In this document: positions 2,467 through 53,746 of the stretch, piece by piece
Layout: each line of letters starts with the position of its first letter
Numbering within the stretch: position 1 is the first letter of the stretch
IMG/VR virus record: IMGVR_UViG_3300045450_000131
Coordinates: 33,228 to 97,227 of that record
Source of the DNA: a virus
Lineage: Duplodnaviria; Heunggongvirae; Uroviricota; Caudoviricetes
DNA length: 64,000 nucleotides
Reading direction: 5' to 3' (one strand)
Made by a program: the position numbers and the translations under genes
The notes under the pieces: generated by a model
Database searches by the model: none
The model's input: the letters and a program-made list of their open reading frames with translations, nothing else
What the model was told of the DNA's origin: nothing

Positions 2467-2550
2467 TGGTGCCTCGGGTGAGATTCGAACTCACAACCCT
2501 CTCGGGGACGGCTTCTAAGACCGCTGCGTAAACCGTTCCGCCACCGAGGC
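2467..2550 (-). tRNA. tRNA-Leu (TAG), class II
   Basis: acceptor GCCTCGG/CCGAGGC, anticodon loop CTTAGAA, long variable arm, T-loop GTTCGAATC, CCA. Confidence 0.65.
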
Positions 2551-2551
2551 T

Positions 2552-2923
2552 TTAAATTCTTTTGAAGACTTCCTTATTATAAATTGTAAATGGCGAATTA
2601 GCCATTAGTTCTTCCTGACTGACCCAGCGAGATTGAATTCCTTCTTCAATGCCGCCTGGAATATCTCCGTCGTAATATGCAAAGAAGCATTGAGTATTAT
2701 AATCTACTTCACCTTTACATACTGCTTCGTAAATCAGGACTGGGCTATCTTTTAATGTAATGCCAGTTTCTTCCATTGTTTCACGAATAGCAGCTTGAAT
2801 GTGCGTTTCTCCTGGATCAACCTTTCCACCTGGCAAGCCAAGTTTATTGGAGTTACGGCGAGTTGTTGCAACCAGCTGGTTCGTAACAGGGTTAATGAGC
2901 AAAAGGCAAGCAGCTTGTTTCAT
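2552..2923 (-). CDS. Nudix (MutT-like) hydrolase
   Basis: Nudix box GGKVDPGETHIQAAIRETMEETGI; TAA stop at 2552; TATAAT promoter at 2946-2954. Confidence 0.7.
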   Translation of the reverse strand: MKQAACLLLINPVTNQLVATTRRNSNKLGLPGGKVDPGETHIQAAIRETMEETGITLKDSPVLIYEAVCKGEVDYNTQCFFAYYDGDIPGGIEEGIQSRWVSQEELMANSPFTIYNKEVFKRI

Positions 2924-7357: not shown

Positions 7358-7430
7358 TGGTGCCGACGGATGGAGTTGAACCACCATTTCTCTTGAGTTC
7401 AAGAGCGTTCTAACGTCGAGCTACGTCGAC
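7358..7430 (-). ncRNA. tRNA-like gene with aberrant anticodon arm (CTCTTGAACTCAAGAG hairpin)
   Basis: acceptor GTCGACG/CGTCGGC, T-loop GGTGGTTCAACTCCATC, CCA encoded; anticodon arm replaced by 6-bp/4-nt hairpin. Confidence 0.35.
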
Positions 7431-7654: not shown

Positions 7655-8151
7655 ATTATAATTTATTATATCACAACTGGTACATGTGGAGATCATTTCA
7701 ATCGTCTTTCAACGACCCATTATTATAGGAGTTACCGGTACCATTAATCTTCTGGCTCACATGTATTATCTGGAGGAACATCATGGTAACGCTCCATCAC
7801 CGGCTCATCACCGATGGTATTGTTTTCAAGGCAATTTCTAGGACTTCCTAGTCGATATTCCAGAATTCGAGGAGACGGTGAGTTGTCAAGCTCACATGGT
7901 TTCATTACAGTGTGTTATTGTGCTACAAGCCTCAGAGGTTAATTACTCCTCAGTCAACGGCAGGGGGTATCTAGCCCATGGACTCGTTTGTGTGACCTTA
8001 TGCCATCCAACGATCTTTATTAATGGCTACAAGATGCTCACTAATATTGACCTGCACTACACTCCTGTAACTAATAACAGCCTACGTACTTGCTTACCGT
8101 AGCACCTTTTCCCCCACAACAAGGGCGTTATCAGTCACGTCTCAAATATGA

Positions 8152-19043: not shown

Positions 19044-19118
19044 TGGCGACTTCACCGGGGCTCGAACCCGGAACCTTAGGATTTAGAGTCCTCTGCTCTA
19101 CCATTGAGCTATAAAGTC
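19044..19118 (-). tRNA. putative amber-suppressor tRNA (anticodon CTA)
   Basis: acceptor GACTTTA/TGAAGTC, D arm GCTCAATGGTAGAGC, anticodon stem GAGGA/TCCTA with loop CTCTAAA (C32 U33 CUA A37), T-loop CCGGGTTCGAGCCCCGG, CCA. Confidence 0.5.
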
Positions 19119-19124
19119 TGAATT

Positions 19125-19198
19125 TGGTGGCCTATGCGAGAATCAAACTCGCTTCCTGAAATTTAGAGTTTCGTACTTTATCATTAAGCTAATAGGCC
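19125..19198 (-). tRNA. second putative suppressor tRNA (anticodon CTA), A19/U56 variant
   Basis: acceptor GGCCTAT/ATAGGCC, anticodon stem CGAAA/TTTCA with loop CTCTAAA, T arm GCGAGTTTGATTCTCGC, CCA. Confidence 0.4.
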
Positions 19199-20235: not shown

Positions 20236-20695
20236 AAACAGCTTTCTAAAGCAGCATTGGGTCCTAAAAGGACCCAATGCTGAATGATTAAACATCTAGA
20301 ATTTTCTTAACAAGGATCTTACTCCTTGGCTAGACCTTAGGCGGCCATTAGCATTTGTGAGTCATTTGCATTTCTCGTTTTTGCTATATTAACGTCATTC
20401 GCCTGACGAGCGCCTTACTAAGTTACTATTCTGTCGGTCGATAGCCAGATCACCCCCATCAAAAGAACTCTTAGGTTACGTAGTTCCGAGTTTTTCAGAT
20501 TAACTATCTGATACTCTGTCAAAGTCTACTGCAGCTTTTACAACTTAACTAGTTGGTGCTTACCTAAAACCATTTTACTTGCTTGAATGTGCCGCGAATA
20601 ATTCAAACTTTCAAATACAGAATTCTTTTGGTGGAGGTGGCGGGAGTTGAACCCGCGTGTCGCCAGTATTTCTCAAAGAAGGTTTACGCTGTTTT
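20236..20695 (-). ncRNA. ssrA: circularly permuted (two-piece) tmRNA, ssrA-like
   Basis: order on minus strand: TATAAT promoter (20701-20712); acceptor piece ending GACACGCGGGTTCAACTCCCGCCACCTCCACCA (3' end 20629), near-identical to the E. coli tmRNA 3' end; ~170-nt spacer; coding piece starting GGGGGTGATCTGGCTATCGACC at 20457, whose first 7 nt pair with CACCTCC including G3:U70; tag frame GCA AAT GAC TCA CAA ATG CTA ATG GCC GCC TAA = ANDSQMLMAA (compare E. coli ANDENYALAA); terminal hairpin GCATTGGGTCC-TTTTA-GGACCCAATGC at 20254-20280. Confidence 0.6.
20337..20369 (-). other. tmRNA tag reading frame (ANDSQMLMAA-stop)
   Basis: resume codon GCA at 20369-20367, stop TAA at 20339-20337; an upstream in-frame GCA at 20384 would give a longer tag. 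Confidence 0.5.
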
Positions 20696-20700
20696 TAATT

Positions 20701-20715
20701 TATATGGTAATTATA
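20701..20715 (-). promoter_or_regulatory. -10 element (GTTATAATT) upstream of tmRNA acceptor piece
   Basis: same aattataacatcatttt motif as at 2946. Confidence 0.45.
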
Positions 20716-20718
20716 ACA

Positions 20719-21546
20719 TCATTTTGGGCTGTGGCCCCAAATTTTTAAACTTAAAAGCTTACGGGTTGGATTGCCATCTTTGTCCTTCATCGGGCCAGCA
20801 GCACCCAACATTCGAGAGACGAAGCTGACTTGTTTCCCGGCCCACTTCCACATTTGCGGTGTCCAGTCTTCAACTTTAGTCTTCTTCATCTTAATAATCC
20901 AGTTTGCACTTTCTACACCAGACGAGATGCCCAATTTTGCTGCTTCTTTTCGTTGCAACCCGGGGTGATCCTTCGGGTCTTTTTTGCCCTTGGCAGTTTG
21001 CTCCTCTTTGAACTTCTCAAGTGAGTCAGCACTCATATTAATTAGCTCTTTCCACCTCTTATATAATTCCTTCTGCTTTTCATCTAGAGTTTCTTTGGCT
21101 TCTAGAATTACTTCTAGTTCTTCATCAATCTTACCCTTAATAAATGCATTGACTCTACCCATTGCCCACGCACTTGAATTGGTGCCAGGAGGGTGGCTCT
21201 TTCTCCATGCCGCCAATCCCTTGTTATACACCTGCTTTAACTTAGATAATGACTTACCACTCTCTTCTGCTTTCTTCTTAAGAGTGTCATCAAGCTTCTT
21301 ATCTTCGGTTAGCTCTTCAGTTTCTAATTCTACTTCACCTAAGTTAGAGATGAAGTCCTTAAATGAAAGGTTCTCAGCTAAGCCGGCTCTACGTTTAACG
21401 ATGCCATTAACATAAGCCCAGAAACGCGGGCTCTTTTTCTTGAACTTTTTCTTAGCTTCATCCTCTGCTTCAGCCCACCATTTTTCAACGTGGTCGACGG
21501 ATTTGCCGGTTTTTTCGGCGTAGGACTTTACAACATTATTAGGCAT
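20719..21546 (-). CDS. hypothetical Lys/Glu-rich protein (start MPNNVV with GGAG RBS)
   Basis: 275 aa, coiled-coil-like charged repeats. Confidence 0.45.
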   Translation of the reverse strand: MPNNVVKSYAEKTGKSVDHVEKWWAEAEDEAKKKFKKKSPRFWAYVNGIVKRRAGLAENLSFKDFISNLGEVELETEELTEDKKLDDTLKKKAEESGKSLSKLKQVYNKGLAAWRKSHPPGTNSSAWAMGRVNAFIKGKIDEELEVILEAKETLDEKQKELYKRWKELINMSADSLEKFKEEQTAKGKKDPKDHPGLQRKEAAKLGISSGVESANWIIKMKKTKVEDWTPQMWKWAGKQVSFVSRMLGAAGPMKDKDGNPTRKLLSLKIWGHSPK

Positions 21547-21811: not shown

Positions 21812-23317
21812 TTAACTAATATAGGCAGCCCGTTCACGGACTTCAGCGAGAGTAGTCCGATTGTAGAACTTGCCGTGATCATAAATGTCAACCATGAAAT
21901 CAACATACTTAGGGTCAACTTCTTTATCAACTCGAATAGTTTCAAAATGGCCATTTTCAGTATTAATTGCAAGAGTAAGAACACCTTCCTTAGACTTCTT
22001 GCCTTGGTCAGTCACTGGGTTCTTAGCGATGCCGTCCCAGAAGAAGGTATTATCGTCGCGTCGGCGCAGAACTGCAGATGCCTTTTGAGCGAACTTGTAA
22101 GTATCGCGGTTGCGCTTCTGAAGTAGAGCTCCGCCAGAACCAAAGATAACATTGTCTGCCGCAAACCCACGAGTCATGATGTGGCCAAGCACGGTACGAA
22201 TCGCGAGGTGATCAACACCGTCACCTTGAATGATACCGACATTATTGATCTTCTTGAAGCCCTTTGCATTGAGAGTAAAGCCGAAGGTCTTAGCTTGCAC
22301 ATCTAGAATGTAGCTGATGATTTCAACCATGTCACCGCTGTCTGGCCGGAAGACGACCTTGGTCTTCGACTCAATAATAACGTCCTTCAGTTCAACACAT
22401 AGAAGTCTAGTTGCGCGATAGACGTCATACCCATCAATGACGATAGACACAATACCTCCGGGCTTGCCAAGGTTTTGGATAACATGCTTGAGGTATGCAA
22501 GTTCGCTGGCTTCATCACCCTTGCCGAAGGAGCATTGCACGCTGTGTTCGGTGGCGGGAACGGAGAATGCAGCCATATTACAATCATAGAAGTGATTTGC
22601 ATACTGCACACCTTCGATGGTATCAGAGCCCATGAATGAAACCAAGTGAGCTGCACCACCAATTTCGGCTTGTTCATGGCAGGTAACACCACGTGCGCCA
22701 AAGTCGTGCAGAGCAAAGGGGATCAGACTCTTGTCGGCGCCGGTGCGTTCATAGAAGTTAGTAATAACTTGCTTGATTTGATAGTCATCAGTTGCGATGG
22801 TAGTCGGATACCATTCACCACGGAGCAGGAGAGTTTCAAAGTAGGAGCACAGCCAGAAGATGTTTTCAGCGACAAAGGTGTCGACGCACATGATGGTGGT
22901 AATTGCATTACCAGACTTGACAGGAGTACCTTCAGGCACACCACGGATAATGAGAGGCATGAAGCCATCATACTTTTTCAAAATATGCTCCCACACATCT
23001 CGTGCGAAGGGTTCACCGTGCGCTTGCGCAAATTGTGCAGCTTCCTCGATGTCTTCACGATTAATAGGTTGAGAGAGGTACTTCTGCAAGACGGCTTGAC
23101 GGCCAAACGGGATCATGATGTCTTGACCGTTGGTGCGGGCTTCAATGTAGGAAGCCATGCCACAGACGTCCTTTGGATACGCAAAGGCGTGGGAAAGCTT
23201 GTAGGAATCCACCGCTAGGATTAGATTAAAGCGCTTTGGCTTTTGTGCAATATATTCAACGCGGGTGTTTGCAGAATGTTGCAGGAAGGGGAGCGCCGGA
23301 ACATTTACTTGGGTCAT
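21812..23317 (-). CDS. nadV: nicotinamide phosphoribosyltransferase (NAMPT/NadV-like)
   Basis: ~500 aa; overall resembles NAMPT/NadV as I recall the family (blocks GFAADNVIFGSGGALLQK and DSGD); start set at MTQVNV with AAGGAG RBS. Confidence 0.65.
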   Translation of the reverse strand: MTQVNVPALPFLQHSANTRVEYIAQKPKRFNLILAVDSYKLSHAFAYPKDVCGMASYIEARTNGQDIMIPFGRQAVLQKYLSQPINREDIEEAAQFAQAHGEPFARDVWEHILKKYDGFMPLIIRGVPEGTPVKSGNAITTIMCVDTFVAENIFWLCSYFETLLLRGEWYPTTIATDDYQIKQVITNFYERTGADKSLIPFALHDFGARGVTCHEQAEIGGAAHLVSFMGSDTIEGVQYANHFYDCNMAAFSVPATEHSVQCSFGKGDEASELAYLKHVIQNLGKPGGIVSIVIDGYDVYRATRLLCVELKDVIIESKTKVVFRPDSGDMVEIISYILDVQAKTFGFTLNAKGFKKINNVGIIQGDGVDHLAIRTVLGHIMTRGFAADNVIFGSGGALLQKRNRDTYKFAQKASAVLRRRDDNTFFWDGIAKNPVTDQGKKSKEGVLTLAINTENGHFETIRVDKEVDPKYVDFMVDIYDHGKFYNRTTLAEVRERAAYIS

Positions 23318-23399
23318 GATAAACTCCTTATCATAGTTGATGAAAGCAAACATCTATTGTTTGCTATATTTTATTTAGGTAAATTATAACCTATTTTGC

Positions 23400-23762: not shown

Positions 23763-25025
23763 TCATTCCTCGATTTTTCGAGGTGCAAATTGCTTTACAT
23801 CCTTGTGCGTTTTGCCATACGACGCGGCAATGACATTAATGTCAAGCTCATCCTGCAGCAATCCAAGAAGATGCTTCGTATCAAAGAGTTGTTGCCCTCC
23901 AGAATACATAGTATTAACTGAAACTTTAGTACCAAGCTGATCCATGCAAGTCACAAACAGGTTTGCACCTGTAACTTTGACATTAAGTAATTCAGACAAA
24001 ATACCGCTAGAACGGGAAATATCAGACTTCAGGTATGCATCCAACACGTGCAAATTCAGCGGCGCATATCTAATATTGCCTTGCCACGCATTTTCAACAT
24101 TGGTGTGATCATACAGTTCCTTGTCTGTAATCCACTCACCTTCATTTTCAAGGTGACCGGCACCATGTCGAGTGACATATGAGCGCGTCATATAGATTGC
24201 TTCAAGCTCCTTAATATTAAGCTCGTGAGCAGCTAGCATTGCTGATGGCAAGCCAGTGATTGAATGAGTAACATGAGGAAAATGCCCCAGTTCCATGTCT
24301 AATCCTAATCCTTGTGCGCCTTCAAAGATAACACCATTCTCTACATGTGGCGGGATAAGCGTGAAGTTATTCACTGCAAGAACCATCATCTTGTGATAGA
24401 TACTTTCCGCATCTAAGCCTAGCAAAAAGTTAAATCGCTCAGTCCATGGGTCAATTTCTTCAAGCAAGTTTAAACCTTCTGCTTCGAGGTAATGATTAAC
24501 GCGAGCAGGAAGCCATTTTTCCTGAATTTCTCTAATCATATTAATGACGTGGCGCTTAGAGAAGATTGTCCCACTAAACAAATCAGAAATAAAGATTGGA
24601 TATTGCTCACTGCGCGCGATTGTTTCATTAATTCCAAGACCGCACGAACCATGCTGGCTTCCATTTCGATGCCTACGGCTCTCAACAATCATGTTCATTG
24701 CAACATCAAAGATCGTACTTACGCGACATTGTGCGTGGACGTGTATTTTAGTAACATCCAGCAGCGCTTCGCGCTCCTTCTTCACCATGTCCAAATTGAT
24801 GATGAAGTTCTTAGATAGGTAAGTTTTGCAACCGTTGAGAGTACCCGCGCCAAACGTATTGAAAACGTGAGTCTCATTATTTCTACACACTGTATGACCA
24901 GCTTGTGCGCCACCGTTATGCCGAACTATGAGTGGCGTTCCTTCAAATTGATTAGAGAAATAGTCGACGGCAAGACCTTTCCCCTCGTCGCCATAATTAG
25001 CACCAATGATTGCAACGTTCTTCAT
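23763..25025 (-). CDS. adenylosuccinate synthetase-like protein (PurA family, divergent)
   Basis: N-terminal P-loop-like GANYGDEGKGL, NGGAQAGHT, FEGAQG, TRSYVTRHGAGH blocks that resemble E. coli PurA blocks as recalled from memory. Confidence 0.6.
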   Translation of the reverse strand: MKNVAIIGANYGDEGKGLAVDYFSNQFEGTPLIVRHNGGAQAGHTVCRNNETHVFNTFGAGTLNGCKTYLSKNFIINLDMVKKEREALLDVTKIHVHAQCRVSTIFDVAMNMIVESRRHRNGSQHGSCGLGINETIARSEQYPIFISDLFSGTIFSKRHVINMIREIQEKWLPARVNHYLEAEGLNLLEEIDPWTERFNFLLGLDAESIYHKMMVLAVNNFTLIPPHVENGVIFEGAQGLGLDMELGHFPHVTHSITGLPSAMLAAHELNIKELEAIYMTRSYVTRHGAGHLENEGEWITDKELYDHTNVENAWQGNIRYAPLNLHVLDAYLKSDISRSSGILSELLNVKVTGANLFVTCMDQLGTKVSVNTMYSGGQQLFDTKHLLGLLQDELDINVIAASYGKTHKDVKQFAPRKIEE

Positions 25026-25441: not shown

Positions 25442-25502
25442 GTATAACTCCCTTACTTAATATAAGGAAATTATAACATGGACACAAAAGTAAGTAAACT
25501 AC

Positions 25503-27831: not shown

Positions 27832-28935
27832 TTAGTCCTTGATCATCCCAATCATAGTATCCAGGATATCAAGATGGTCCTCGAACCACTTCTCGCTATT
27901 TGCTCGAGCTTCAGAAATTGGCAGCCAAAATGCCTTTGCAGTTTCTACAACCTCAGCACCACCGGTTTCATGGAGTGGTGCATTCTGCCCCTTCACCTTA
28001 GGCAGTGGCTTGGTGTCGTCAAGGCGAATCAAAAAGGCGGTAGTGATAGTGCGACCACGCAAGCTTCGGTTCGGATCATCGAAGATTTCCTTCGCCTTGA
28101 TGGAACCTTGCATGACTTGCTTAGGAACTTTAATGCCAGTCTCTTCTACCAATTCTCGCACGACGGCATCTTGGAGCCGCTCCTTCTGGTCGAGGAAGCC
28201 ACCAGGCAGAGCCCATAGTCCCTTACCAGGTAGTGCGCCTCGCTCGACCACCAGTACGTGACCAGATTGAATAACGACACCATCAACCGTGTTAAAGGTG
28301 GGAGCGTAGGGCGCTGCCTGCCATGCCCTCTTATACTTTTGCATGAAGTCATACTCAGCCTTTAGGGTATTAAAGACATCAGTCTTCACAAAGTCCTGCA
28401 AGAACAAGAAGGTGGAGAATGGCACGTCATACCAGCATGCCTTTTCAAGGGGCTTCTCGAAGAGGCGCTGCCGAAGTTCTGTCGCATTAAGGCCGTGACC
28501 ACTATGGTCAATATCGAGCAGGAAGGGAGGAATGAGCCTAGACTTGTATTGAGGGAAGGCGCTCAAATACCAAGTAGATTCATCACGATCAGAGCCGACG
28601 ATCTGAATATCCACTTGCTCATCTTTAAAACGCTTTGAAACGATTTCACTCACCTTTTCTTGCACAGATTGAATCCACTTCGAGTCGTTGTAGATTTGAT
28701 CACGCAGCGGCACCGTGACTACGTTACGAGACGTGCCCATGTTGGGAAATGACGCGATAATCATTTCAGCGCGTTCTTTAAAGGTAAATGGGTTCTTGAT
28801 GGTGCGGGCTTGGTTTGCAGAACCAACTAGCACGATGGTGAGGTCACTCTCAGCATGTGCATGGCGAAGGACATGTTGATGACCGAGGTGGAAGGGCTGG
28901 AATCGCCCAATGTATACTGAAACTTTCTTTGCCAT
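27832..28935 (-). CDS. natV: bifunctional NMN adenylyltransferase / Nudix ADP-ribose pyrophosphatase (NadM/NatV-like)
   Basis: N-terminal GRFQPFHLGH nucleotidyltransferase motif; C-terminal Nudix box GGFLDQKERLQDAVVRELVEETGI. Confidence 0.65.
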   Translation of the reverse strand: MAKKVSVYIGRFQPFHLGHQHVLRHAHAESDLTIVLVGSANQARTIKNPFTFKERAEMIIASFPNMGTSRNVVTVPLRDQIYNDSKWIQSVQEKVSEIVSKRFKDEQVDIQIVGSDRDESTWYLSAFPQYKSRLIPPFLLDIDHSGHGLNATELRQRLFEKPLEKACWYDVPFSTFLFLQDFVKTDVFNTLKAEYDFMQKYKRAWQAAPYAPTFNTVDGVVIQSGHVLVVERGALPGKGLWALPGGFLDQKERLQDAVVRELVEETGIKVPKQVMQGSIKAKEIFDDPNRSLRGRTITTAFLIRLDDTKPLPKVKGQNAPLHETGGAEVVETAKAFWLPISEARANSEKWFEDHLDILDTMIGMIKD

Positions 28936-30428: not shown

Positions 30429-31568
30429 TTACTTCTTTTTGGCTTCGCGCTTAATGACCGCAAGTGCCGCTGGGTGAACCGCCCACTTCACGCGTTCAAT
30501 ATCAAGAGGATCAACATCACGCCACTTAGGGTGACCATTAGCTTGCAAGTTATCTACGTTCTTTACAATGCACGATACCAGGTTCGCAATTTCCGTCTGA
30601 TACTGATTCTTGTAGGCGAAGGTTGCCAGCACGTTATCTACCTTGTAGGTATTAGTTGCGCCGGCCTGCCATGGGTAAGTTCCAGACGGAATGGTCGCTT
30701 TAGTGAAGATGTTAGCACTATCAATTTTAGGATTCTGCAGCGAAACTAGCTTGAGGCCCGTTGCACCAGAAAGAACCTGGAGAGGTTGGCCGCCGACAAT
30801 GAAGGCCACATCAGCACCACCAGTTTGCACCGCCTTAATGCTTTCTGCCTGTGATAGATTACCAGCCGATGTCCAGTTAATATTAGACAGCTGTTTTAGC
30901 TGCTGTACGGTTGCCCAAGTGCCTGAACCTTCTTGACCTTCAGCAACTCGCTTGCCTTCCAAATCGGCGATAGTCCTAATAGGTGAGCCGCTTGATGTAA
31001 CGGCGTGGATTTCTTCAGAGTAGAATGGGAAGATAGCGACAACTCGAGACATCATCTTCGGGTCTTGCTGCTTTAAGTATTGCAGAATGTTGGCTTGAAC
31101 TACACCAAATTGAGTGTTTGGATCAGTGTAGATTTTATTTGCGTTATCCACTGACCCGGCGGATCGAACGTTACGTAGTGGGTAATCTTGCGTAGAGCAG
31201 GACTTGACAATGTCGTTCACGATTGGGTAGTAGGAACCAGATGGTTCGCCAGATGCGATGCCTGCGCCAGGCAACTTGCCTTGAGCAGTTTGTACTGCTT
31301 GCCGGGGCTCTTCAACTGCAGCTTGGGCTGGTGGGACATATTGAGGCTGTTGCACAACTGGCGCGGCTTGAACTACTGGTGGCTCAGTGCGAACTACTGG
31401 AGCTTGAGCTGGTTGTGCAACTACGGTTGCCACCTGAGTTGGTTGCTGAACTTGGGATAGCTGAGGTTGAGACTCTGGCTGACCCATGAATTTATACACA
31501 CCGAATCCGGCGGCACCAACAATGCCGGCAACGATCAGCGCCTTAGGAACGGTTTTCAGTTTTGCCAT
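30429..31568 (-). CDS. membrane-anchored TAXI-family (TRAP-type) solute-binding protein with Pro/Gln-rich linker
   Basis: N-terminal TM anchor MAKLKTVPKALIVAGIVGAAGFGV; PQ-rich linker; core GIASGEPSGSYYPIVNDI and KRVAEGQEGSGTWAT resemble TAXI motifs as recalled. Confidence 0.5.
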   Translation of the reverse strand: MAKLKTVPKALIVAGIVGAAGFGVYKFMGQPESQPQLSQVQQPTQVATVVAQPAQAPVVRTEPPVVQAAPVVQQPQYVPPAQAAVEEPRQAVQTAQGKLPGAGIASGEPSGSYYPIVNDIVKSCSTQDYPLRNVRSAGSVDNANKIYTDPNTQFGVVQANILQYLKQQDPKMMSRVVAIFPFYSEEIHAVTSSGSPIRTIADLEGKRVAEGQEGSGTWATVQQLKQLSNINWTSAGNLSQAESIKAVQTGGADVAFIVGGQPLQVLSGATGLKLVSLQNPKIDSANIFTKATIPSGTYPWQAGATNTYKVDNVLATFAYKNQYQTEIANLVSCIVKNVDNLQANGHPKWRDVDPLDIERVKWAVHPAALAVIKREAKKK

Positions 31569-33136: not shown

Positions 33137-34066
33137 TTAGTGGTGGCGCCTCCACCATGCTGCAATGTTGTGCCGATACAGCATTCCATCTTCCAATACC
33201 TGCAAAATAGAACGACTAGACCTGTCAAGGAAGAAGTCCTCATGTGCCTTTTCATACTCGCAGTAACCATTAGCTAGGTGCTTACCCGCTTTTTCTTGAT
33301 TTAGGATGCAGTAATTAAGCGCCAATACCACACCTTCCTTGACTTCTTCGAAGTGTTCGGCTTCAACTCCACCACCCAAGCTGCTGTGAATCTTAATCCA
33401 CAGGTAATCTCTACCCATCTTTTCAACTAGTTGAGGCCGCTTTAGCCGAAGCCACCGATCAATCTCGGTGTATTCAATATCACCAAGGTGTTCAGATGCC
33501 ATGTGAAAGCCCATGCCTTCAAGCAGATCAGAATCATTGTAGTGATTAGTGCTCTTAAACCCGTTGCTCAAGGCCTTAATGTGGTTTTTAAAATTAACAT
33601 CTTCTACATCTGTCACTTCATCAAGGTCAATGTGTAAATGCTGAGACATAGAGTACAGAAAGTTTTGTGCCAGGCAACGGTGAGTAGTGTGCTCATTTCC
33701 TTCTGGCCCCATGAATTCGTCGGCGGCGGTGGCAAAGACATATGATGCAATTTTGCATGAACGATCTCGAGTTAGCTTCTTGTCACTTTCACTGATGAAG
33801 AATGAACGGGCGTTTGCAACCTTGCCTGACAGAGTGGCCATATAACCACCATAATGCCCATTCCATGAGATATAACGTGCAATCCACTTCAAAAGTGCTA
33901 AGTCATTGGTGCACTTATCAAGTGACTGCATGATATAGCTTCGAATGTGATTGTCATTCTGCTCACCATTATGAATGATAGTTTTGACAATTTTGTGTGA
34001 GATTGCTTCCTTGACCAGGCTGGTAATAATGGCGTCTTCAGCGGGAGTTGGGTCGGTATAGATCAT
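33137..34066 (-). CDS. heme-oxygenase-like fold / iron-containing redox enzyme family protein (tentative)
   Basis: all-alpha 309-aa protein with spaced His/Glu (EH...H, EHxxH) patterns; sits next to the ABC importer genes. Confidence 0.3.
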   Translation of the reverse strand: MIYTDPTPAEDAIITSLVKEAISHKIVKTIIHNGEQNDNHIRSYIMQSLDKCTNDLALLKWIARYISWNGHYGGYMATLSGKVANARSFFISESDKKLTRDRSCKIASYVFATAADEFMGPEGNEHTTHRCLAQNFLYSMSQHLHIDLDEVTDVEDVNFKNHIKALSNGFKSTNHYNDSDLLEGMGFHMASEHLGDIEYTEIDRWLRLKRPQLVEKMGRDYLWIKIHSSLGGGVEAEHFEEVKEGVVLALNYCILNQEKAGKHLANGYCEYEKAHEDFFLDRSSRSILQVLEDGMLYRHNIAAWWRRHH

Positions 34067-34845
34067 GCAGTGGGCTTCAGGTAGTTAAGGAGGGTATTTT
34101 CCAACGAAATGTCATTAGAAGGTCGAACTGCCTTGAGGGCTTGTGGAGCGTAGTTGCGATTCACATCGTGAACAATACGACCAGGCTTTGCACCCATCAC
34201 GATGATGCGGTCGCCAAGAGCAATCGCTTCACTGACGTCATGGGTAATTAAAATGATAGTGCAAGGATTAGCATTATACAACTGAATCAGCAGTTCGTGC
34301 ATATCTTTACGTGTAAATGCATCTAAAGCGCCGAATGGCTCATCCATCAACAAAATCTTAGGACCGAGGGCTAGTGCCCGGGCTAGTGCAACGCGTTGAT
34401 TTTGGCCACCAGAAAGTTGGGATGGGTATAAGTTCTTCTTGTCTGCCAAGCCAACCGCATGCAGTAGTCTATCGACTTGCGTTTGCGCATTTGCCTTTGG
34501 CACCTGCTTCTTCCAATATCCAAGTGTAAAGGGGAACATTACATTCTGCTCGACTGTCAAATCTGGCCGATTGGAGTATTGCTGGAATACCGTCACGGCA
34601 TCATTGAGTTGGTCATGGCATTCAACGCCATCTACTACTACCGTGCCCTTCGTCGGAGTAGTTACTCCTTGAGGTCGGACTCCACCCATCATACGAAGTA
34701 GAGTTGACTTGCCACACCCAGATTGCCCCATCAAAATATTAATTGAAGGGCCAGCAATAGTGAGAGAAAGGTTTTCAATGACGACGTTAGCAACATTGTT
34801 GTGGACATAAGTCTGGTTAATTTCTTTGAGTTCAATGATTGACAT
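34063..34845 (-). CDS. ABC transporter ATP-binding protein (NitT/TauT family)
   Basis: Walker A GQSGCGKST, signature LSGGQNQR, Walker B ILLMDEPFGALD, H-loop ITHD. Confidence 0.75.
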   Translation of the reverse strand: MSIIELKEINQTYVHNNVANVVIENLSLTIAGPSINILMGQSGCGKSTLLRMMGGVRPQGVTTPTKGTVVVDGVECHDQLNDAVTVFQQYSNRPDLTVEQNVMFPFTLGYWKKQVPKANAQTQVDRLLHAVGLADKKNLYPSQLSGGQNQRVALARALALGPKILLMDEPFGALDAFTRKDMHELLIQLYNANPCTIILITHDVSEAIALGDRIIVMGAKPGRIVHDVNRNYAPQALKAVRPSNDISLENTLLNYLKPTA

Positions 34846-34855
34846 GATTATTTCC

Positions 34856-35635
34856 TTACTTGCCTGCCCAGAAGTAGTACTTGTTCTTGATTAGCTTCAA
34901 GACAATATCGGTAATGAATGCAATCAAGATGATGACGATAATACCGGCAAATACTTGATCCATTGCAGAGAATCGACGAGCGCTCTGAATCAAGCTCCCC
35001 AATCCCTGAGTTGCATTTACGTATTCTGCAACGGTGATATATCCCCATTGGATAGACACCGCCATAATCCCAGCCTCTGCAATTCGAGGCATTGCCATTG
35101 GCAAGACTGCTCGGGTAATGCACTCATAGTAGGAAGCGCCTAGATCGCGAGCGCTTTCCCAGTAAATGTAAGGGACTGCTTTAATTGCATCACGAACCAT
35201 CGGAATCATGAAGATGACCGCGCCCAAGAAGAGGAATGTAACTTTCATTTCTTCACCAATCCCCAACCAAATCACTAGGATTGGAAGGATTGCAACGATC
35301 GGTGCCGACCGGAATGGATCAAGAAGTGGAGATAGAGCTGCGTTAACTGGAGGTGCCGCGCCCATTAGAACTCCAACTGGAATTCCAATCAGCAAAACGA
35401 AGAGGGTAGCGATGGCAACTCGACTTACAGACGCAATCGTTGCACCCAGGAGTTGGCTTTGGCCGTTATCCCACGCCAAGTATGAGAATGCATTGAGCAC
35501 GGAAAGTGGTGACGGCAGCTTATTCTGGCCAACTAGGGTGGACACAAAGGTCCAAACAATTAGCAATAGAATTAGAGCACCTGCACCAAGGAGCTTCTTC
35601 GTGGTAGGGGAGAGTGGTTTATGTGGATTGAACAT
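34856..35635 (-). CDS. ABC transporter permease (binding-protein-dependent inner membrane component)
   Basis: 6 TM pattern; ATG at 35635 (the ORF track used GTG at 35647). Confidence 0.65.
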   Translation of the reverse strand: MFNPHKPLSPTTKKLLGAGALILLLIVWTFVSTLVGQNKLPSPLSVLNAFSYLAWDNGQSQLLGATIASVSRVAIATLFVLLIGIPVGVLMGAAPPVNAALSPLLDPFRSAPIVAILPILVIWLGIGEEMKVTFLFLGAVIFMIPMVRDAIKAVPYIYWESARDLGASYYECITRAVLPMAMPRIAEAGIMAVSIQWGYITVAEYVNATQGLGSLIQSARRFSAMDQVFAGIIVIILIAFITDIVLKLIKNKYYFWAGK

Positions 35636-35637
35636 TT

Positions 35638-35850
35638 TTAGTTGCACGCCTTGTGAACGCCATTTTCCATAGTGGGGATTGTGTTGCTGCTTTTATGACC
35701 AGTAATTGTAACTACATATTCCTTGCCTTCATGACACTTTGTTTGCATTCTAACTGGATACTCAGGCTGCTTCTGAATGTGTAAAGAATAAAATAACCCA
35801 CCAAAAAACAAGACACTAACGGAGAGTCCAGTTATAAGAAAAGATGACAT
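35638..35850 (-). CDS. small membrane protein
   Basis: 70 aa, N-terminal TM; AAAGG RBS; TATAAT at 35873-35881. Confidence 0.4.
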   Translation of the reverse strand: MSSFLITGLSVSVLFFGGLFYSLHIQKQPEYPVRMQTKCHEGKEYVVTITGHKSSNTIPTMENGVHKACN

Positions 35851-36468: not shown

Positions 36469-38133
36469 TTACTGACCAAAGATACCGACTCGAGTTGTCC
36501 GATTTTCAGCCTTGCAGCTTTCAATATCCAGGCCGTCTGCGCTTGGGTTAGCTTCATTACAGATCGGCTTTGCTGAGCCATTACCAGTAACCTTGAAGCG
36601 ACTTACCGGGAAGTCCCATTGCTTAACGAGGTAGTCAACTACGACTGCGGCTCGCTTTTGGCTCAGTGGCTTATTCACGCCGTCTGAACCGCTGCTGTCA
36701 GTGTTACCGGAGATTTCGATGTATGCCTTACCATTATTCTCGATAAAGGGCACCATCTGATCATCGATTTGCTTCTTGGCTCGCTGAGAAAGTTCGAAGC
36801 TACCAGTATCGAATCGGACTGCAACTGGCTTAGTGATAGCTGCCTTGTTTTGCGATGCGCTCTGCAGACCTTGCGAGGTGAACGTTTCAGTCGGTGCAGC
36901 CGCCGCTTGAGCAGCTTGCGAGTTGTTAGCCAAAAGGTTCTTAATGAAGGAGTAGTCGATGCTATCTTGTGGGTTAATCACAGGAGACTTCGGATTAGCA
37001 AGAGCGCCTGCTGCACGATATACACCATCAAATTGCTTGTAAACTCGTTCGTAGTGGTTGGTACCACCTGCCATGCCGAGAATACGTGCATTGTCTTCCA
37101 ATCCGGTCATGTCAACGTTGTTGAAGAGGGACTTGACGAATGGCTTACCCTGGTCTTTGGCAAGCAGTTCGAACATCTTCTCGTTCTTGATGATGACGTC
37201 TGTTGCTTGATCGAGGTCTTTTTCAGCAATAAGCGTTGCATCCATCCACCCACTAACTAGGGATTGAATTGCCTTCTTGCCTGCATCATTGTTGATGACG
37301 CGTTGATCACAGATCATAACGTCGTAAATGAGGTTCGTTGCAGTCTTAGTGCTGTACACAACGTGGCTGTTTTGCTTTGCAGCGAGGGAGAGGTCTGGGT
37401 CCCATAGAACCGCCGCATCTACCTTGCCACTTTCATATGCTGCTCGAACGCCGGCCGTGCCTTCATCGGCATTGATGAAGACCATCTTGATGCTTTGCTT
37501 CTTCTTAGCAGAGAGCGAGCTGTTTTCGATCGCGTCGATCAGCAGACCGTGAGAAGGAGTGTATTGCAGTAGTGCAACCGACTTGCCAGCAAGGTCCTCG
37601 ACGGAGCGAATGCCTTGGTCCTTAGCGATAATTGCATCACCACCACGGGTATTTGCAATCAGCATTACGACCTTGCCGTCATGGCCTGAGTTACGAAGGT
37701 TCGGCTGGATTTGAGACCAGAAGTCGGAGGTGCGAACAACGCAGTGGCCAGAACCGCTTTCCCAAATCGTAGTTAGATCGGGGAAGTCATCTTGCATGTT
37801 GTACTTGACATTGACACCAAGCTTGTCATTGATGGAGCCCGAAGCAGTGTCGAAGCCGCCACCGTTTGCAATCAGGCCGGGTGCATAACCGTGGAAGGAC
37901 AAGAAGCTAATTTTCAGTGGGTTGCTCGCGGAACCAATATCGCCCTTACCAGTCTTTGCAGGTACTGCGGCAGTCTTGGTAGAAGTCGGCGCCGCGGGCG
38001 TAGAGCTGTAATTCTCAGTTTTGCTTTCGCCACCGACCTTGTTGAGAACGCCAGAGAGGTGAACTGCGTATCCAATACCACCAACTACTGCGCCGATAAT
38101 GACCATCTTCGGCAGAGTCTTAAGTTTTGCCAT
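36469..38133 (-). CDS. membrane-anchored NMT1/THI5-type (NitT/TauT) substrate-binding protein fused to C-terminal OmpA-like peptidoglycan-binding domain
   Basis: N-terminal anchor MAKLKTLPKMVIIGAVVGG (paralogous to 30429-31568); central SsuA/ThiY-like SBP region; C-terminal ...NTDSSGSDGVNKPLSQKRAAVVVDYLV... OmpA/MotB motif. Confidence 0.55.
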   Translation of the reverse strand: MAKLKTLPKMVIIGAVVGGIGYAVHLSGVLNKVGGESKTENYSSTPAAPTSTKTAAVPAKTGKGDIGSASNPLKISFLSFHGYAPGLIANGGGFDTASGSINDKLGVNVKYNMQDDFPDLTTIWESGSGHCVVRTSDFWSQIQPNLRNSGHDGKVVMLIANTRGGDAIIAKDQGIRSVEDLAGKSVALLQYTPSHGLLIDAIENSSLSAKKKQSIKMVFINADEGTAGVRAAYESGKVDAAVLWDPDLSLAAKQNSHVVYSTKTATNLIYDVMICDQRVINNDAGKKAIQSLVSGWMDATLIAEKDLDQATDVIIKNEKMFELLAKDQGKPFVKSLFNNVDMTGLEDNARILGMAGGTNHYERVYKQFDGVYRAAGALANPKSPVINPQDSIDYSFIKNLLANNSQAAQAAAAPTETFTSQGLQSASQNKAAITKPVAVRFDTGSFELSQRAKKQIDDQMVPFIENNGKAYIEISGNTDSSGSDGVNKPLSQKRAAVVVDYLVKQWDFPVSRFKVTGNGSAKPICNEANPSADGLDIESCKAENRTTRVGIFGQ

Positions 38134-44094: not shown

Positions 44095-44124
44095 AAAAAG
44101 GGAGCAAATTGCTCCCTTTATTTT
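44095..44124. terminator. bidirectional terminator GGGAGCAAATTGCTCCC with flanking A/T runs
   Basis: perfect stem, TTTATTTT on plus and TTTTT on minus. Confidence 0.7.
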
Positions 44125-45457
44125 ACTTTTCTCCTTCAAGCCACTTATTACTAATTGCCTTGAATTGCTTCGAAGTCGTTGTCGACTTAAAAACTAGACC
44201 TTCACGAACTGCAGCATATAGTGACTTGCCTTCAGCAAACTTTAGCAAGTCATCCATGTTGTGAATACCTAGGCTCGCTAGTGTGCCATAAGTGACAACT
44301 GGCACTTCTTCAATCTTTGGCAAGCCGCTAACTTGGTGCATGATTTCCAGATCAGCCATCAGTTCAGTTCGTTCGAGAGGAGATAGAAATTCCTGTCGAT
44401 CGATGTCGAAGACATTATAGACGAAGAAGCGATTATAAGCAAAGCCTTCAGGATTGCCTTGAATGCCAGGTCCACATAGTTCTCCCTGCAGCGCAATATT
44501 CTTGCCAAGTTTCTCTAGCATTTCAAAGATGCCAGTTTGAGCTTGCTTGACGAAGGAGTTGTCTTCATTGCCTTCAATCTTTAGGTCCAGGTTTCGTGAG
44601 CACACGCCAAGTTGAACAGGTGTGTCGTCATCGGTGTAATGATTAACTGGTGCCTTGTAGCGATACACGGTCATTGAAGAGCCATCAAGCTTAATGGTGA
44701 CTTCATACACCTCATCAACATTAGCTTGTGCAGGACGCAACTTAGCATAACCATTGTTAGTATGGACAAGCTCGCCCTTGTTGAACATGGAAAGCAGAGC
44801 TTCGGTTGGAATGCCTTCGATGTCGAAAGGCACTTCAGTTGGCTCATAGCCGAAGATTTGCTGCGCCATATTTTGGCACCGCTCTTGATCCGACTTGCGT
44901 AGGAATGAGGGGAAGTTACCCTTCGCCATCCCAGCAAGTTGAGCCGAAACTGGCTTGTCCCACTTCATGACTCCCAACTTAACAGTCAAGTTAAGTTGAC
45001 GTGCCTCGTCATAATTTGACTCAGCAAGCTTAATTTCTTCTGCAATTTCAGGGAAGAGCTTAACAGGCAAAGCTAGACCTTGTGAAATTTGCTTGCGCAA
45101 CCGAATAGTGCGCAGCCGCGCGCCCTCAACGCCTTCCCACGTAATCTGATTCTTCATCAAGAAGGCAAAGCGCTCATCGGTTTTTTGTACGAAAGAGTCA
45201 ACTTCAAGGTAAACACACAGGTCATTAACTTGGAATTCACCAGCCTTCACAACCACCTTCCAGCCCTCGATTGTCGCAACCTTAATTAGGTCTGCACCGG
45301 GAATGTCATCGATCGCATCAATACGCCGGATAGTTACTAGCTTGCGGCCATCTTCCTCAACAATTTTCAGGAGGCGCTGAATGTTTGCGTTATTTTGATC
45401 TTTATTCAGTTGATCCATAACTTCGAATGCTTCTTCAATAATAGTAATCTCTTGCAT
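44123..45457 (-). CDS. RNA ligase (Rnl1-like nucleotidyltransferase)
   Basis: motif I VTIKLDGSS (KxDG), 444 aa, begins MQE like T4 Rnl1. Confidence 0.5.
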   Translation of the reverse strand: MQEITIIEEAFEVMDQLNKDQNNANIQRLLKIVEEDGRKLVTIRRIDAIDDIPGADLIKVATIEGWKVVVKAGEFQVNDLCVYLEVDSFVQKTDERFAFLMKNQITWEGVEGARLRTIRLRKQISQGLALPVKLFPEIAEEIKLAESNYDEARQLNLTVKLGVMKWDKPVSAQLAGMAKGNFPSFLRKSDQERCQNMAQQIFGYEPTEVPFDIEGIPTEALLSMFNKGELVHTNNGYAKLRPAQANVDEVYEVTIKLDGSSMTVYRYKAPVNHYTDDDTPVQLGVCSRNLDLKIEGNEDNSFVKQAQTGIFEMLEKLGKNIALQGELCGPGIQGNPEGFAYNRFFVYNVFDIDRQEFLSPLERTELMADLEIMHQVSGLPKIEEVPVVTYGTLASLGIHNMDDLLKFAEGKSLYAAVREGLVFKSTTTSKQFKAISNKWLEGEK

Positions 45458-46662: not shown

Positions 46663-47061
46663 TTAATTCCACTTAATTTGATTTAATTCCCTGCTCAATC
46701 TCAAGAAGAGCAGTATACCGATACATCTTGCCTCCATCTCATTTGGCGCGGCAAGAGAATGCATTTTAAGTCCTTTTATGACAAACGTCGAGTGCCAAAC
46801 CTGATTGCCCTCAAGTTCTTGGCACTCGACACCAATAATCATACCAATTGTAATTTCGGCTTGCCTGATGGCATTTAAATCACTCAAGTAATTATGCTTT
46901 TCATTGATATAACTTAAAGCATTATATTTGAAATAGTTATCAAGCTCACCACGTTCCTTAAACTCCTTCCAATCCACTTGCACCTCTTCGTAGCACCTCT
47001 TGATAATGTCCCCGGGTGCAGGAGGTTTGCGGCGGTCAGAAAGGTTTACAACGTTAGTCAT
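46663..47061 (-). CDS. hypothetical protein
   Basis: 132-aa ORF. Confidence 0.4.
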   Translation of the reverse strand: MTNVVNLSDRRKPPAPGDIIKRCYEEVQVDWKEFKERGELDNYFKYNALSYINEKHNYLSDLNAIRQAEITIGMIIGVECQELEGNQVWHSTFVIKGLKMHSLAAPNEMEARCIGILLFLRLSRELNQIKWN

Positions 47062-47864
47062 ACTTCAATGAAGAGTCTATTACTGAATTTATTAAATGGG
47101 TTATCAGTTTGTTCAAACCTATATCCAAGTGGATTGCAGATGAATCGAGTGTTATTTAGCACGCGATCAAAGGTATCGTGCGTGTGGCCGCAAATCCAAA
47201 TGTCAGGCGCAAAGTCTGAGTTAATGATGTCGTCACAATTGTTAGCAAAGCCACCGTTAATTGCATGCCCAAAACGAGGATGACAAAGAGCATAGGATGG
47301 CATGTGGTGGGTAATTACGATCTTTTTAGCTTCTGAAGCCTGCAGTTTCTCTTTAATAATTTGCTTTTGCTCCTTGGCAATCTCCATCATGTCATCGACG
47401 TTAAAGCGTCGATGCCCAAGTTGCACTACCTTGAAGTCATTTAAAGCACAATTAATATCAAACTGCTCAATTACACTTTTGCCGCCGTCACCCCACAAAG
47501 TCCCTAAGATGAATTCACGTCCTTGAATACTAATGCTATTCACATCCATAATAGATACAGTAATATTATCCATCTTGCTGAAGGCGCTAGTTAACTCTTC
47601 AGTGTATGACTTAATTTCATGCCTATACCACTCGTGATTTCCAGCAACAAAGAGGGTGTGAATAAAACGGTCCTTCACGGCCTTAATGAAATCTATCAGG
47701 TAGTCGCCCTTTGAGCAAATATCACCCGCTAAAACTAAAATGCTCTCTTCATCTAAAATATCTTCAGGCACATACCTATCCACTACCTTGGCAATCGGCA
47801 TGCCAAGGTATTGTTCTAGATGAATGTCGCTCAAAATGCGTAAAAATTTTAAGTCAGGTTTCAT
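47058..47864 (-). CDS. calcineurin-like metallophosphoesterase
   Basis: GDxxD..., VAGNHE, ICGHTHD motifs. Confidence 0.6.
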   Translation of the reverse strand: MKPDLKFLRILSDIHLEQYLGMPIAKVVDRYVPEDILDEESILVLAGDICSKGDYLIDFIKAVKDRFIHTLFVAGNHEWYRHEIKSYTEELTSAFSKMDNITVSIMDVNSISIQGREFILGTLWGDGGKSVIEQFDINCALNDFKVVQLGHRRFNVDDMMEIAKEQKQIIKEKLQASEAKKIVITHHMPSYALCHPRFGHAINGGFANNCDDIINSDFAPDIWICGHTHDTFDRVLNNTRFICNPLGYRFEQTDNPFNKFSNRLFIEV

Positions 47865-51716: not shown

Positions 51717-52157
51717 ATGGCAAAGAAAAAAATTCCCAATCTAATTATTGAGGAAACCCCAGATACTAACAACCACTTCTTCTTGGCAGTCTTAGAATAC
51801 CGTAAGGAAAAGTATATCGTAGTGGTGGATAACATCACAGAAGATTCAATCGGCGCATACGTCTTAGACTTAGCAAAGCAAGAAGGATTAGATTCAAAGC
51901 AACTATTGAGCTTAATTACAGAGTGGTTCTACCGCGCATCATATCGGTATCCACTCTCATTTGAATTCTCTAGATTGGGTGTAGCACATCTAACTAACAG
52001 AATCTACAAAAACTTTGAACTAGCTCACGTCACTCGCCTCATTGGAAACGACTTCACGTTTGATCTCGATTCAACACCGAAGATCAAACGTAGAAGAGTC
52101 AGCTTTATTCCAGCTGGAGTTGAAGTTAAGTTAAAGAAGAAGCCAGTTGAGGCTTAA
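51717..52157 (+). CDS. hypothetical protein (plus strand)
   Basis: 146-aa ORF convergent with neighbours. Confidence 0.4.
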   Translation: MAKKKIPNLIIEETPDTNNHFFLAVLEYRKEKYIVVVDNITEDSIGAYVLDLAKQEGLDSKQLLSLITEWFYRASYRYPLSFEFSRLGVAHLTNRIYKNFELAHVTRLIGNDFTFDLDSTPKIKRRRVSFIPAGVEVKLKKKPVEA

Positions 52158-53701: not shown

Positions 53702-53746
53702 AAATTCGGTCCTATAAAAGAGACAATAAGAAATTATAACACAGTT

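Follow-up and report, generated by a model that had tools for sequence, protein, structure and literature searches.

We analysed a 64 kb stretch of an uncultured phage (IMG/VR record IMGVR_UViG_3300045450_000131, positions 33,228 to 97,227; hereafter the window) and describe here a transfer-messenger RNA (tmRNA, ssrA) locus on its minus strand, where positions 20720-20240 were read letter by letter. Very probably it is a real and expressed tmRNA gene, circularly permuted and of the betaproteobacterial two-piece type, in an uncultured phage that is large and probably jumbo. An earlier reading made from the letters alone (the sequence-only reading) had proposed a phage-borne, permuted two-piece tmRNA with a plausible role in ribosome rescue, and this core is borne out by two detectors, by unconstrained co-folding and by covariation across ten sequences.

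Detection and anatomy of the gene

ARAGORN calls a 'tmRNA*' (permuted) at 20246-20722 (-) with the tag ANDSQMLMAA*, and the Rfam model RF04321 (tmRNA_permuted; gathering score 47 bits) matches 20690-20337 (-) at 94.1 bits (E = 6e-17), over the full model (1-213 of 213) and without truncation. The circularly permuted order is seen by both programs. Leave-one-out hidden Markov models (HMMs), built from relatives only, match the window at 20691-20629 (E = 1.7e-14) and at 20457-20309 (E = 7.4e-26); as these are the exact predicted boundaries of the two pieces, the observation lies far beyond chance. Two public assemblies made independently (Logan SRR35356220 and SRR35356221) contain the locus with 100% identity, which rules out an assembly artefact but contributes no sequence variation. 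The G+C content of the gene is about 42%, that of the window being 39-48%.

All parts lie on one strand, in the order acceptor piece (20690-20629), intervening sequence (IVS; 20628-20458) and coding piece (20457-20246), and the relatives found in other phages have the same order. The elements of the gene, in which P2 and P3 denote helices, are as follows.

20718-20710 (-): extended -10 promoter TGTTATAAT, containing TATAAT at 20715-20710; from motif enrichment in the window
20690-20629 (-): acceptor piece, the 3' half of the tRNA-like domain (TLD); from RF04321, ARAGORN and the leave-one-out HMM
20690-20660 (-): 5' strand of P2, within the acceptor piece
20656-20640 (-): T arm GCGGG/UUCAACU/CCCGC; from the sequence, RF04321 and minimum free energy (MFE) folding
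20639-20633 (-): acceptor 3' strand CACCUCC, with U70 at 20635
20632 (-): discriminator A (A73)
20631-20629 (-): encoded CCA
20628-20458 (-): IVS of 171 nt, an insert relative to the Rfam model, predicted to be removed during maturation
20628-20619 with 20471-20462 (-): IVS closing stem of 10 bp; from folding and family covariation
20461-20458 (-): 4-nt leader UGAU before the predicted RNase P site
20457-20246 (-): coding piece; from ARAGORN, RF04321, a partial RF01850 match, the leave-one-out HMM, co-folding and covariation
20457-20451 (-): acceptor 5' strand GGGGGUG, with G3 at 20455; from 20457 the coding piece opens with GGGGGUGAUCUGGCUAUCGACC
within the coding piece (-): D-loop analogue with invariant UGG and UCGA
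20437-20409 (-): 3' strand of P2
20408-20393 (-): P3 hairpin CGUC-AGGCGAAU-GACG
20369-20337 (-): tag reading frame GCA AAU GAC UCA CAA AUG CUA AUG GCC GCC UAA, encoding ANDSQMLMAA; from ARAGORN
20369-20367 and 20339-20337 (-): resume codon GCA and stop codon TAA
20335-20252 (-): 3' domain of the coding piece; from MFE folding and a motif aligned to the RF01850 consensus
20335-20330 with 20299-20294 (-): outer helix of the 3' domain, enclosing a hairpin and the beta-type CCUUGUUA motif
20328-20323 with 20316-20311 (-): inner hairpin of the 3' domain
20282-20252 (-): terminal hairpin of 14 bp, followed by C-UUU-AG

A check of the sequence thus recovers on the minus strand every element that the sequence-only reading had named, namely TATAAT, the T arm, CACCTCC-A-CCA, the spacer (171 nt) and GGGGGUG. 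Its remark that the 3' end is nearly that of E. coli ssrA also stands, the terminal 30 nt of the acceptor piece being identical at 29 of 30 positions to the annotated ssrA of all 5,426 complete E. coli genomes. So do its G3:U70 pair (20455:20635) and its tag, which ARAGORN reads identically. The alanine identity set is complete (G 20455 paired with U 20635, A 20632, and CCA at 20631-20629), and charging with alanine is predicted from it. The tag frame opens at an alanine resume codon, has neither a start codon nor a Shine-Dalgarno (SD) sequence, and closes with a hydrophobic xAA followed by a stop. The P3 hairpin at 20408-20393 is present and nearly invariant across the family.

Unconstrained MFE folding, both of the two pieces together and of the whole precursor, recovers the T arm, a 7-bp acceptor stem between the pieces, P2, the P3 hairpin and the 14-bp terminal hairpin. 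In the two-piece co-fold P2 is an interrupted helix of 18 bp, made of AGCG/CGCU, CCUU/AAGG, UUGAG/CUUAG and a TLD-proximal segment. The 3' domain (20336-20246) folds at -35.5 kcal/mol (z = -5.9), and none of 200 shuffles folds as well. The sequence-only reading had named an outcome that would speak against it, with models seeing the 32-nt tRNA-like end alone and a coding segment that stays unfolded; we found instead a full-length RF04321 match, and folding of P2, the P3 hairpin and the tag region.

For covariation we aligned 10 of the 11 distinct family sequences (alignment A3), with the window included, the IVS removed and the structure written by hand. Over the whole structure 86.3% of the cells are paired, versus 34-46% when the partners are slid by 1-3 columns, and the observed covariation score is reached by none of 500 shuffles. 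The acceptor stem between the pieces is 100% paired, with three of its seven pairs changed on both sides; the versions found in the family are CACCUCC/GGGGGUG, CAUCUCC/GGGGAUG, CAGGUCC/GGGCCUG, CGGCUCC/GGGGCCG and CGAGUCC/GGGCUCG. G3:U70 is invariant (10 of 10 members) and the T arm is 96% paired. P2 (segments a-d) counts 19 pairs as written, with double changes at 5 of 6 pairs in P2a and at 7 of 13 in distal P2; its middle segment is just 70% paired, in part owing to alignment uncertainty. This is strong comparative evidence that both halves work together as one tRNA-like domain.

The intervening sequence, lineage and phage family

Within the family the IVS measures 24, 25, 36, 72, 84, 85, 95, 130 or 171 nt, the window having the longest. 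Its termini are conserved while its length varies 7-fold: CCA is followed by AAAG at the 5' junction, and CUUUUGAU is followed by GGGG at the 3' junction. When the first nine IVS bases are set against the nine bases preceding the 4-nt 3' tail, 87% are paired in this register, versus 39-62% in other registers, and nine distinct versions of the stem occur. RF04321 has no IVS, and that of the window aligns to it as an insert. Taken whole, the IVS of the window shows no more structure than shuffled sequence does (z = -0.5) and has no Rfam match, on which grounds we rejected a structured or functional IVS; its ends nonetheless pair. We infer an extended, pre-tRNA-like helix in the precursor, which would present the RNase P site and the CCA end, with the interior as a dispensable spacer.

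In a more distant phage permuted tmRNA (L025, 5236-5330 (+)), the 95-nt IVS holds a tRNA-like T-arm string, GGTTCGAGTCC, with complementary flanks, and may harbour another small structured RNA. In L094 (about 2534-2909 (-)), CAA stands in place of CCA after the discriminator, so that the acceptor piece would need CCA repair or addition, and the IVS closing stem lies in a different register.

The closest clade-specific model in a permissive Rfam scan of the locus is RF01850 (beta_tmRNA), with 44.2 bits over the coding piece (20508-20281). Eight loci, which represent seven distinct sequences, pass this model at full length with 98-135 bits (L040, L041, L093, L094, L100, L106, L108 and L110), which identifies the family as a beta-type two-piece tmRNA. 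The blocks specific to this lineage are present in the window: the P3 hairpin, the block before the resume codon and the post-tag CCUUGUUA motif (compare the RF01850 consensus CCUUGuuAC). The leave-one-out HMM that matches 20457-20309 (E = 7.4e-26) was likewise made from phage relatives passing RF01850. The alpha and cyanobacterial models (RF01849 and RF01851) were not listed in the permissive scan of the locus, in which RF01850 was retained on the coding piece; unlike the window, two other loci (L029 and L031) pass RF01849. The standard tmRNA model (RF00023) aligns at the 3' end only, with 26.8 bits against a gathering score of 47.

The betaproteobacterial two-piece tmRNA is reportedly the 'third lineage' of Sharkady and Williams from 2004. 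The sequence-only reading had named permuted genes in the alpha and cyanobacterial lineages and missed this third one, in which the RF01850 evidence places the window gene. Its impression of a gamma-proteobacterial sequence does not hold, since the identity with E. coli goes no further than the universally conserved tRNA-like 3' end and the RNA is of beta type. With the bacterial beta genes the window gene shares the acceptor-IVS-coding order, the terminal hairpin, a promoter directly upstream, the P3 hairpin CGUCAGGCGAnnGACG, an A-rich run ahead of UAAAUGCNAAyGA, a tag that closes with MAA or LAA, and after it the CCUUGUUA motif. It differs in being phage-borne rather than chromosomal, in its richer AT content, its divergent 3' domain and its long IVS. 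With the one-piece ssrA of E. coli (RF00023) it shares the T arm and acceptor 3' end, G3:U70, A73, CCA and an ANDxxxxxAA tag, whereas its gene order is permuted.

The family comprises 11 distinct sequences after de-duplication, the window and ten relatives, from uncultured viral contigs in IMG/VR and from one metagenome. A search of viral contigs with the T-arm/acceptor 28-mer returned mostly standard phage tmRNAs together with three permuted ones; L040 was found with the RNase P junction string and L041 by a metagenome scan, and the P3 hairpin string brought 18 more loci, nearly all of them permuted tmRNAs according to ARAGORN. The family tags are ANDSQMLMAA, ANEANFRVAA, ANDDTFGALRLAA, ANDNEPMEEMELRLAA, ANDSVYALAA, ASNDAFYGDLRLAA, ANDAYYGETALAA, ANDSFYGETRLAA, ANDDSFTPMALAA, ANDNSFTPMAMAA and ANDSTFAVAA, the last read by eye. 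All have 10-16 residues, start with AN(D/E) or ASND and end with (L/M/V)AA and a stop, and their middle is variable. The most frequently recovered member is the L093 group (10 near-identical IMG/VR contigs together with L108 and L109), whose tag ANDDSFTPMALAA is followed by two stop codons and whose atypical T arm, GGGGU-UUCAAU-ACCCC, has a 6-nt loop or else a 4-bp stem with an 8-nt loop. Among the 50,697 deposited phage records of INPHARED no match to the locus was found by megablast or blastn, and a permissive search with the coding piece gave nothing beyond chance matches (E = 4).

Expression signals and the carrier phage

The motif TGNTATAAT occurs 17 times in the window versus 3.65 expected, a count that none of 100 shuffles reaches. 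Sixteen of the 17 sites lie on the minus, that is coding, strand, and 13 are exactly TGTTATAAT. They are intergenic, either 25-45 nt ahead of starts with SD and ATG or just before tRNAs. In the form TG(T/A/G)TATAAT, with sites for example at 53733-53741, 25470-25478, 20710-20718 and 7665-7673 and no evident conserved -35, this motif appears to be the extended -10 promoter class of the phage. The TATAAT promoter that the sequence-only reading had noticed is present and, more exactly, forms part of this recurrent element. The tmRNA copy sits 20 nt upstream of the P2 helix, with a predicted start near 20703, about 12 nt before P2; TATAAAT at 20704-20698 is an alternative -10. Because the tmRNA has its own copy of the enriched motif, it most likely belongs to the same class as the tRNA bank and is transcribed by the host sigma-70 polymerase. 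A T4-type late promoter was rejected, the T4 late motif TATAAATA not being enriched in the window (3 matches versus 3.7 expected). In several relatives no obvious -10 is seen, and there the tmRNA may share a transcript with the gene upstream.

Phage genes in the window include tail-fibre repeats, an ATP-dependent DNA ligase, an RNA ligase, a PurA/PurZ-like synthetase, a T4-type clamp loader, a DNA polymerase fragment, an HNH endonuclease and ABC-transporter genes. The clamp loader best matches that of Ralstonia phage RsoM2USA (43.5%), followed by Xanthomonas phages Xoo-sp13 and XacN1 and Pseudomonas phage PA5oct (about 38-39%), with cyanomyophages at a similar level; the phage is without a close relative in culture. 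On this one marker protein the carrier would be a distant relative of jumbo myoviruses and T4-like only loosely, through its T4-type replication module; the description 'T4-like' in the sequence-only reading was too strong, the more so as TATAAATA is not enriched.

ARAGORN finds 24 tRNA genes in the window, on the same strand as the tmRNA. One more weak tRNA match, at 7361-7430 (-), scores 33.4 bits in Rfam (gathering 29) and is not called by ARAGORN. We also noted an RNA ligase with a PHA02142 OB-fold (44123-45457 (-)), a calcineurin-like phosphoesterase (47058-47864 (-)) and an RlaP 'RNA repair pathway' nucleotidyltransferase (52154-53188 (-)), which make a possible RNA-repair set. The tRNA bank, the RNA ligase and RlaP around the tmRNA fit a theme of translation maintenance.

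An NAD+ salvage pair on the minus strand consists of a NadV-like NAMPT (21812-23353), at most 43% identical to any deposited phage homologue, and a NatV-like fusion of NMN adenylyltransferase and Nudix domains (27832-28935). An adenylosuccinate-synthetase homologue (23763-25025 (-)) has the PurZ-type phrog_1211 as its best PHROG (3e-45), which might point to 2-aminoadenine (Z) DNA or to nothing more than a PurA-like auxiliary gene. Three ABC-transporter-like genes (30429-31568, 34063-34845 and 34856-35647 (-)) encode an NMT1/phosphonate-type substrate-binding protein, an ATPase and a member of phrog_6743 (unknown function), and an OmpA-domain protein is encoded at 36469-38133.

Proposed function and competing explanations

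In the mechanism that we propose, the host sigma-70 polymerase would start at TGTTATAAT and produce a precursor of about 450-460 nt ending at the terminal hairpin; motif and hairpin are seen directly, and transcription is the predicted step. In this precursor the acceptor 3' strand pairs with GGGGGUG 171 nt downstream, and the stem closing the IVS ends stacks on the acceptor helix in a pre-tRNA-like manner, as both folding and covariation show. By analogy with two-piece maturation in Caulobacter, RNase P would cut 5' of G 20457, the acceptor piece would be trimmed to the encoded CCA at 20629, and the IVS would be discarded. The predicted products, joined by the acceptor stem and the long P2, measure about 62-75 nt for the acceptor piece and about 205-212 nt for the coding piece. 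The host alanyl-tRNA synthetase (AlaRS) would charge this RNA through G3:U70 and A73, and host SmpB and EF-Tu would bring it to ribosomes stalled on truncated mRNAs. Translation would resume at GCA and add (A)ANDSQMLMAA, so that the ribosome is freed and the peptide is marked for proteolysis of the ClpXP type. The mechanistic model is the two-piece tmRNA of Caulobacter crescentus (Keiler, Shapiro and Williams, 2000, as described in PMC3985003), which belongs to the alpha lineage and differs in P2 and pseudoknot details; its function was shown experimentally, whereas the window RNA is known from its sequence.

Host SmpB, AlaRS, EF-Tu, RNase P and proteases are presumably used by the window RNA. 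The likely benefit is a ribosome pool kept free during infection, a setting in which host mRNAs would be degraded, host ssrA transcription possibly shut down, and ribosomes pushed past TAG by amber suppressors. The best-supported role is that already proposed for phage tmRNAs, to keep ribosomes available during takeover (PMC9004378, PMC7162821).

Several observations weigh against a functional beta-type tmRNA. The window copy scores below the RF01850 gathering threshold (44.2 versus 84 bits), and only its coding piece aligns sensibly to that model. We infer that the 171-nt insert causes the low score, because L098, with an IVS of 130 nt, also fails RF01850, and these two have the longest IVS of the family; the window copy is thus best described as homologous to the beta two-piece lineage, strict RF01850 membership not being claimed. 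By inspection we saw no convincing second stem for pseudoknot PK1, and the P3 loop, being invariant, offers no covariation to go by. The U-tract of the terminal hairpin is weak, for which reason a simple terminator scan made no call. A tblastn search of the 64 kb detected no SmpB homologue (best E = 1.8), with an approximate query and with only part of the genome visible. The upstream DUF5824/DUF6321 protein has its closest relatives in L036 and L037 (IMG/VR; 59-64% identical over part of its length), and neither locus, the latter from a 336-kb viral contig, has a tmRNA or tRNA within 6 kb of that relative; the tmRNA gene would accordingly be an accessory one, patchily distributed in this phage group. 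No bacterial donor was found in one scan of a genome collection with the TLD 5' strand (51 loci, nearly all chance matches). The sole real tmRNA in that scan was a standard one from a Gemmataceae metagenome-assembled genome, and the betaproteobacterial matches (Curvibacter, Acidovorax, Thiobacillaceae) were rejected as donors, as they contain no tmRNA. Finally, sequence-based prediction underlies the two RNA ends (20457 and 20629) as well as aminoacylation and tagging.

A different main role is suggested by the neighbourhood. About 1 kb downstream of the tmRNA lie two tandem tRNA(CUA) genes of amber-suppressor type, non-identical and non-homologous, with their own TGTTATAAT promoter at 19232-19224, of the same class as that of the tmRNA.

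19044-19118 (-): tRNA(CUA); from ARAGORN ('Pyl' label), Rfam 67.9 bits, discriminator G
19125-19198 (-): tRNA(CUA); from ARAGORN ('Pyl' label), Rfam 58.9 bits, discriminator A

The tmRNA could mainly serve these suppressors, rescuing ribosomes that have read through host TAG stops as far as the 3' end of the mRNA and tagging the extended host proteins for degradation, with phage genes escaping through their avoidance of TAG, as a module for host shutoff and amino-acid recycling; we regard this as possible, if unlikely. A tRNA(CUA) near the tmRNA also occurs in L040, L041 and L106, that is in 4 of 11 distinct family lineages versus none of 34 viral tmRNA loci outside the family (Fisher p = 0.002). 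As the window, L040 and L041 are close relatives, these four co-occurrences represent perhaps two independent lineages, and most family loci are too short for the absence of a tRNA(CUA) to be informative. TAG ends 1 of 79 open reading frames (ORFs) in the window. In crude ORF sets it ends 3 of 113 at the CUA-bearing loci versus 45 of 319 at unrelated viral tmRNA loci (p = 0.0004), and 8 of 60 at family loci lacking tRNA(CUA). An in-frame recoding of TAG was rejected for the window: reading it as a sense codon gains hardly any coding sequence, and the only TAGs in frame lie in spurious N-terminal extensions. Large phages commonly have suppressor tRNAs, with or without a tmRNA, and the two genes are candidate suppressors by their anticodon. 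Read-through by suppressor tRNAs is known to generate substrates for trans-translation (Ueda et al., 2002, cited in PMC3985003), and a functional coupling of suppressor tRNAs and tmRNA is plausible. The fuller proposal, that the tmRNA and the adjacent suppressors act as one module in which host TAG stops are read through, non-stop ribosomes cleared and aberrant host proteins marked while phage genes are spared, we hold to be quite unlikely.

The RNA might instead be a competitor or decoy that titrates host SmpB or replaces the host tmRNA, and so disables or re-programs host trans-translation. The TLD-only tmRNA of mycobacteriophage DS6A is reported to inhibit the cell's own tmRNA upon expression in E. 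coli (PMC4131195, PMC11915505), and, with no phage SmpB seen in the window, competition for the host protein would be needed. Against this, the tag frame, resume codon, stop and protease-type C-terminus are conserved in all family members despite large divergence elsewhere. Such conservation of the AND start and of (L/M/V)AA with its stop around a variable middle argues for real tagging over a decoy, which we judge very unlikely.

There is next to no chance that the locus is a recently captured, decaying copy of a host ssrA or an ssrA-derived attachment-site fragment without function for the phage: the near-identity of its 3' end with E. coli ssrA, the occurrence of the same 28-mer in many viral contigs, the frequent use of ssrA 3' ends as integration sites (PMC12595487) and the fact that the copy with the family's longest IVS also has its lowest clade-model score would all be in keeping with a remnant, but both tRNA-like halves are present together with P2, P3, the tag and the 3' domain, every acceptor-stem and T-arm pair is intact with G3:U70 kept, the gene has its own phage-type promoter and is maintained across a diverse phage family under compensatory evolution, its composition matches that of the phage, no close bacterial source was found, and no integrase was detected among the roughly 30 window ORFs scanned.

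A functional tmRNA of beta type thus remains our preferred reading, and it joins a known class. A tmRNA was reported in 402 of 18,146 phage genomes, with 53 of 133 unique forms being two-piece (Buchholz et al., 2022, PMC9004378); both tmRNA and SmpB are reported from huge phages (Al-Shayeb et al., 2020, PMC7162821), and a 2025 tmRNA database holds 79 phage entries (PMC11915505). In view of such published phage tmRNAs, two-piece forms included (PMC9004378, PMC7162821), the sequence-only reading overstated its case in calling the gene unusual. Two-piece examples come from Methylophilales phage Melnitz, Pelagibacter phages HTVC008M and Mosig, phiCbK-like Caulobacter phages and cyanomyophages (PMC9004378). 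Like these, the window gene is an ssrA that is both complete and permuted, in a large phage of lytic type, located near tRNAs and behind an early-type promoter, and the same roles are proposed, namely to maintain the hijacked translation machinery or to tag host proteins (PMC9004378). They are, as far as described, of alpha or cyanobacterial type, whereas the window gene is of beta type. The Melnitz tmRNA carries a glutamine riboswitch (PMC9004378), and none was found at the window locus in the Rfam scan (E up to 10).

The locus is a real and well-formed addition to the documented phage tmRNAs, flagged by standard annotation tools, from a beta-type family that is absent from cultured phages. 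What is new here is that beta-type two-piece tmRNAs form a coherent family in uncultured phages, with 11 distinct sequences and none in 50,697 deposited phage genomes. The comparative proof of an acceptor stem between the pieces, together with a conserved stem closing an IVS of free length, may help to explain how permuted precursors are recognized by tRNA-processing enzymes. The association of the tmRNA with suppressor tRNAs and with avoidance of TAG stops is testable. If true, a suppressor-tmRNA module would be a previously undescribed strategy of host shutoff and resource recycling at the level of translation, and, should the link hold, it would connect two devices by which large phages hijack translation and which have been treated apart until now.

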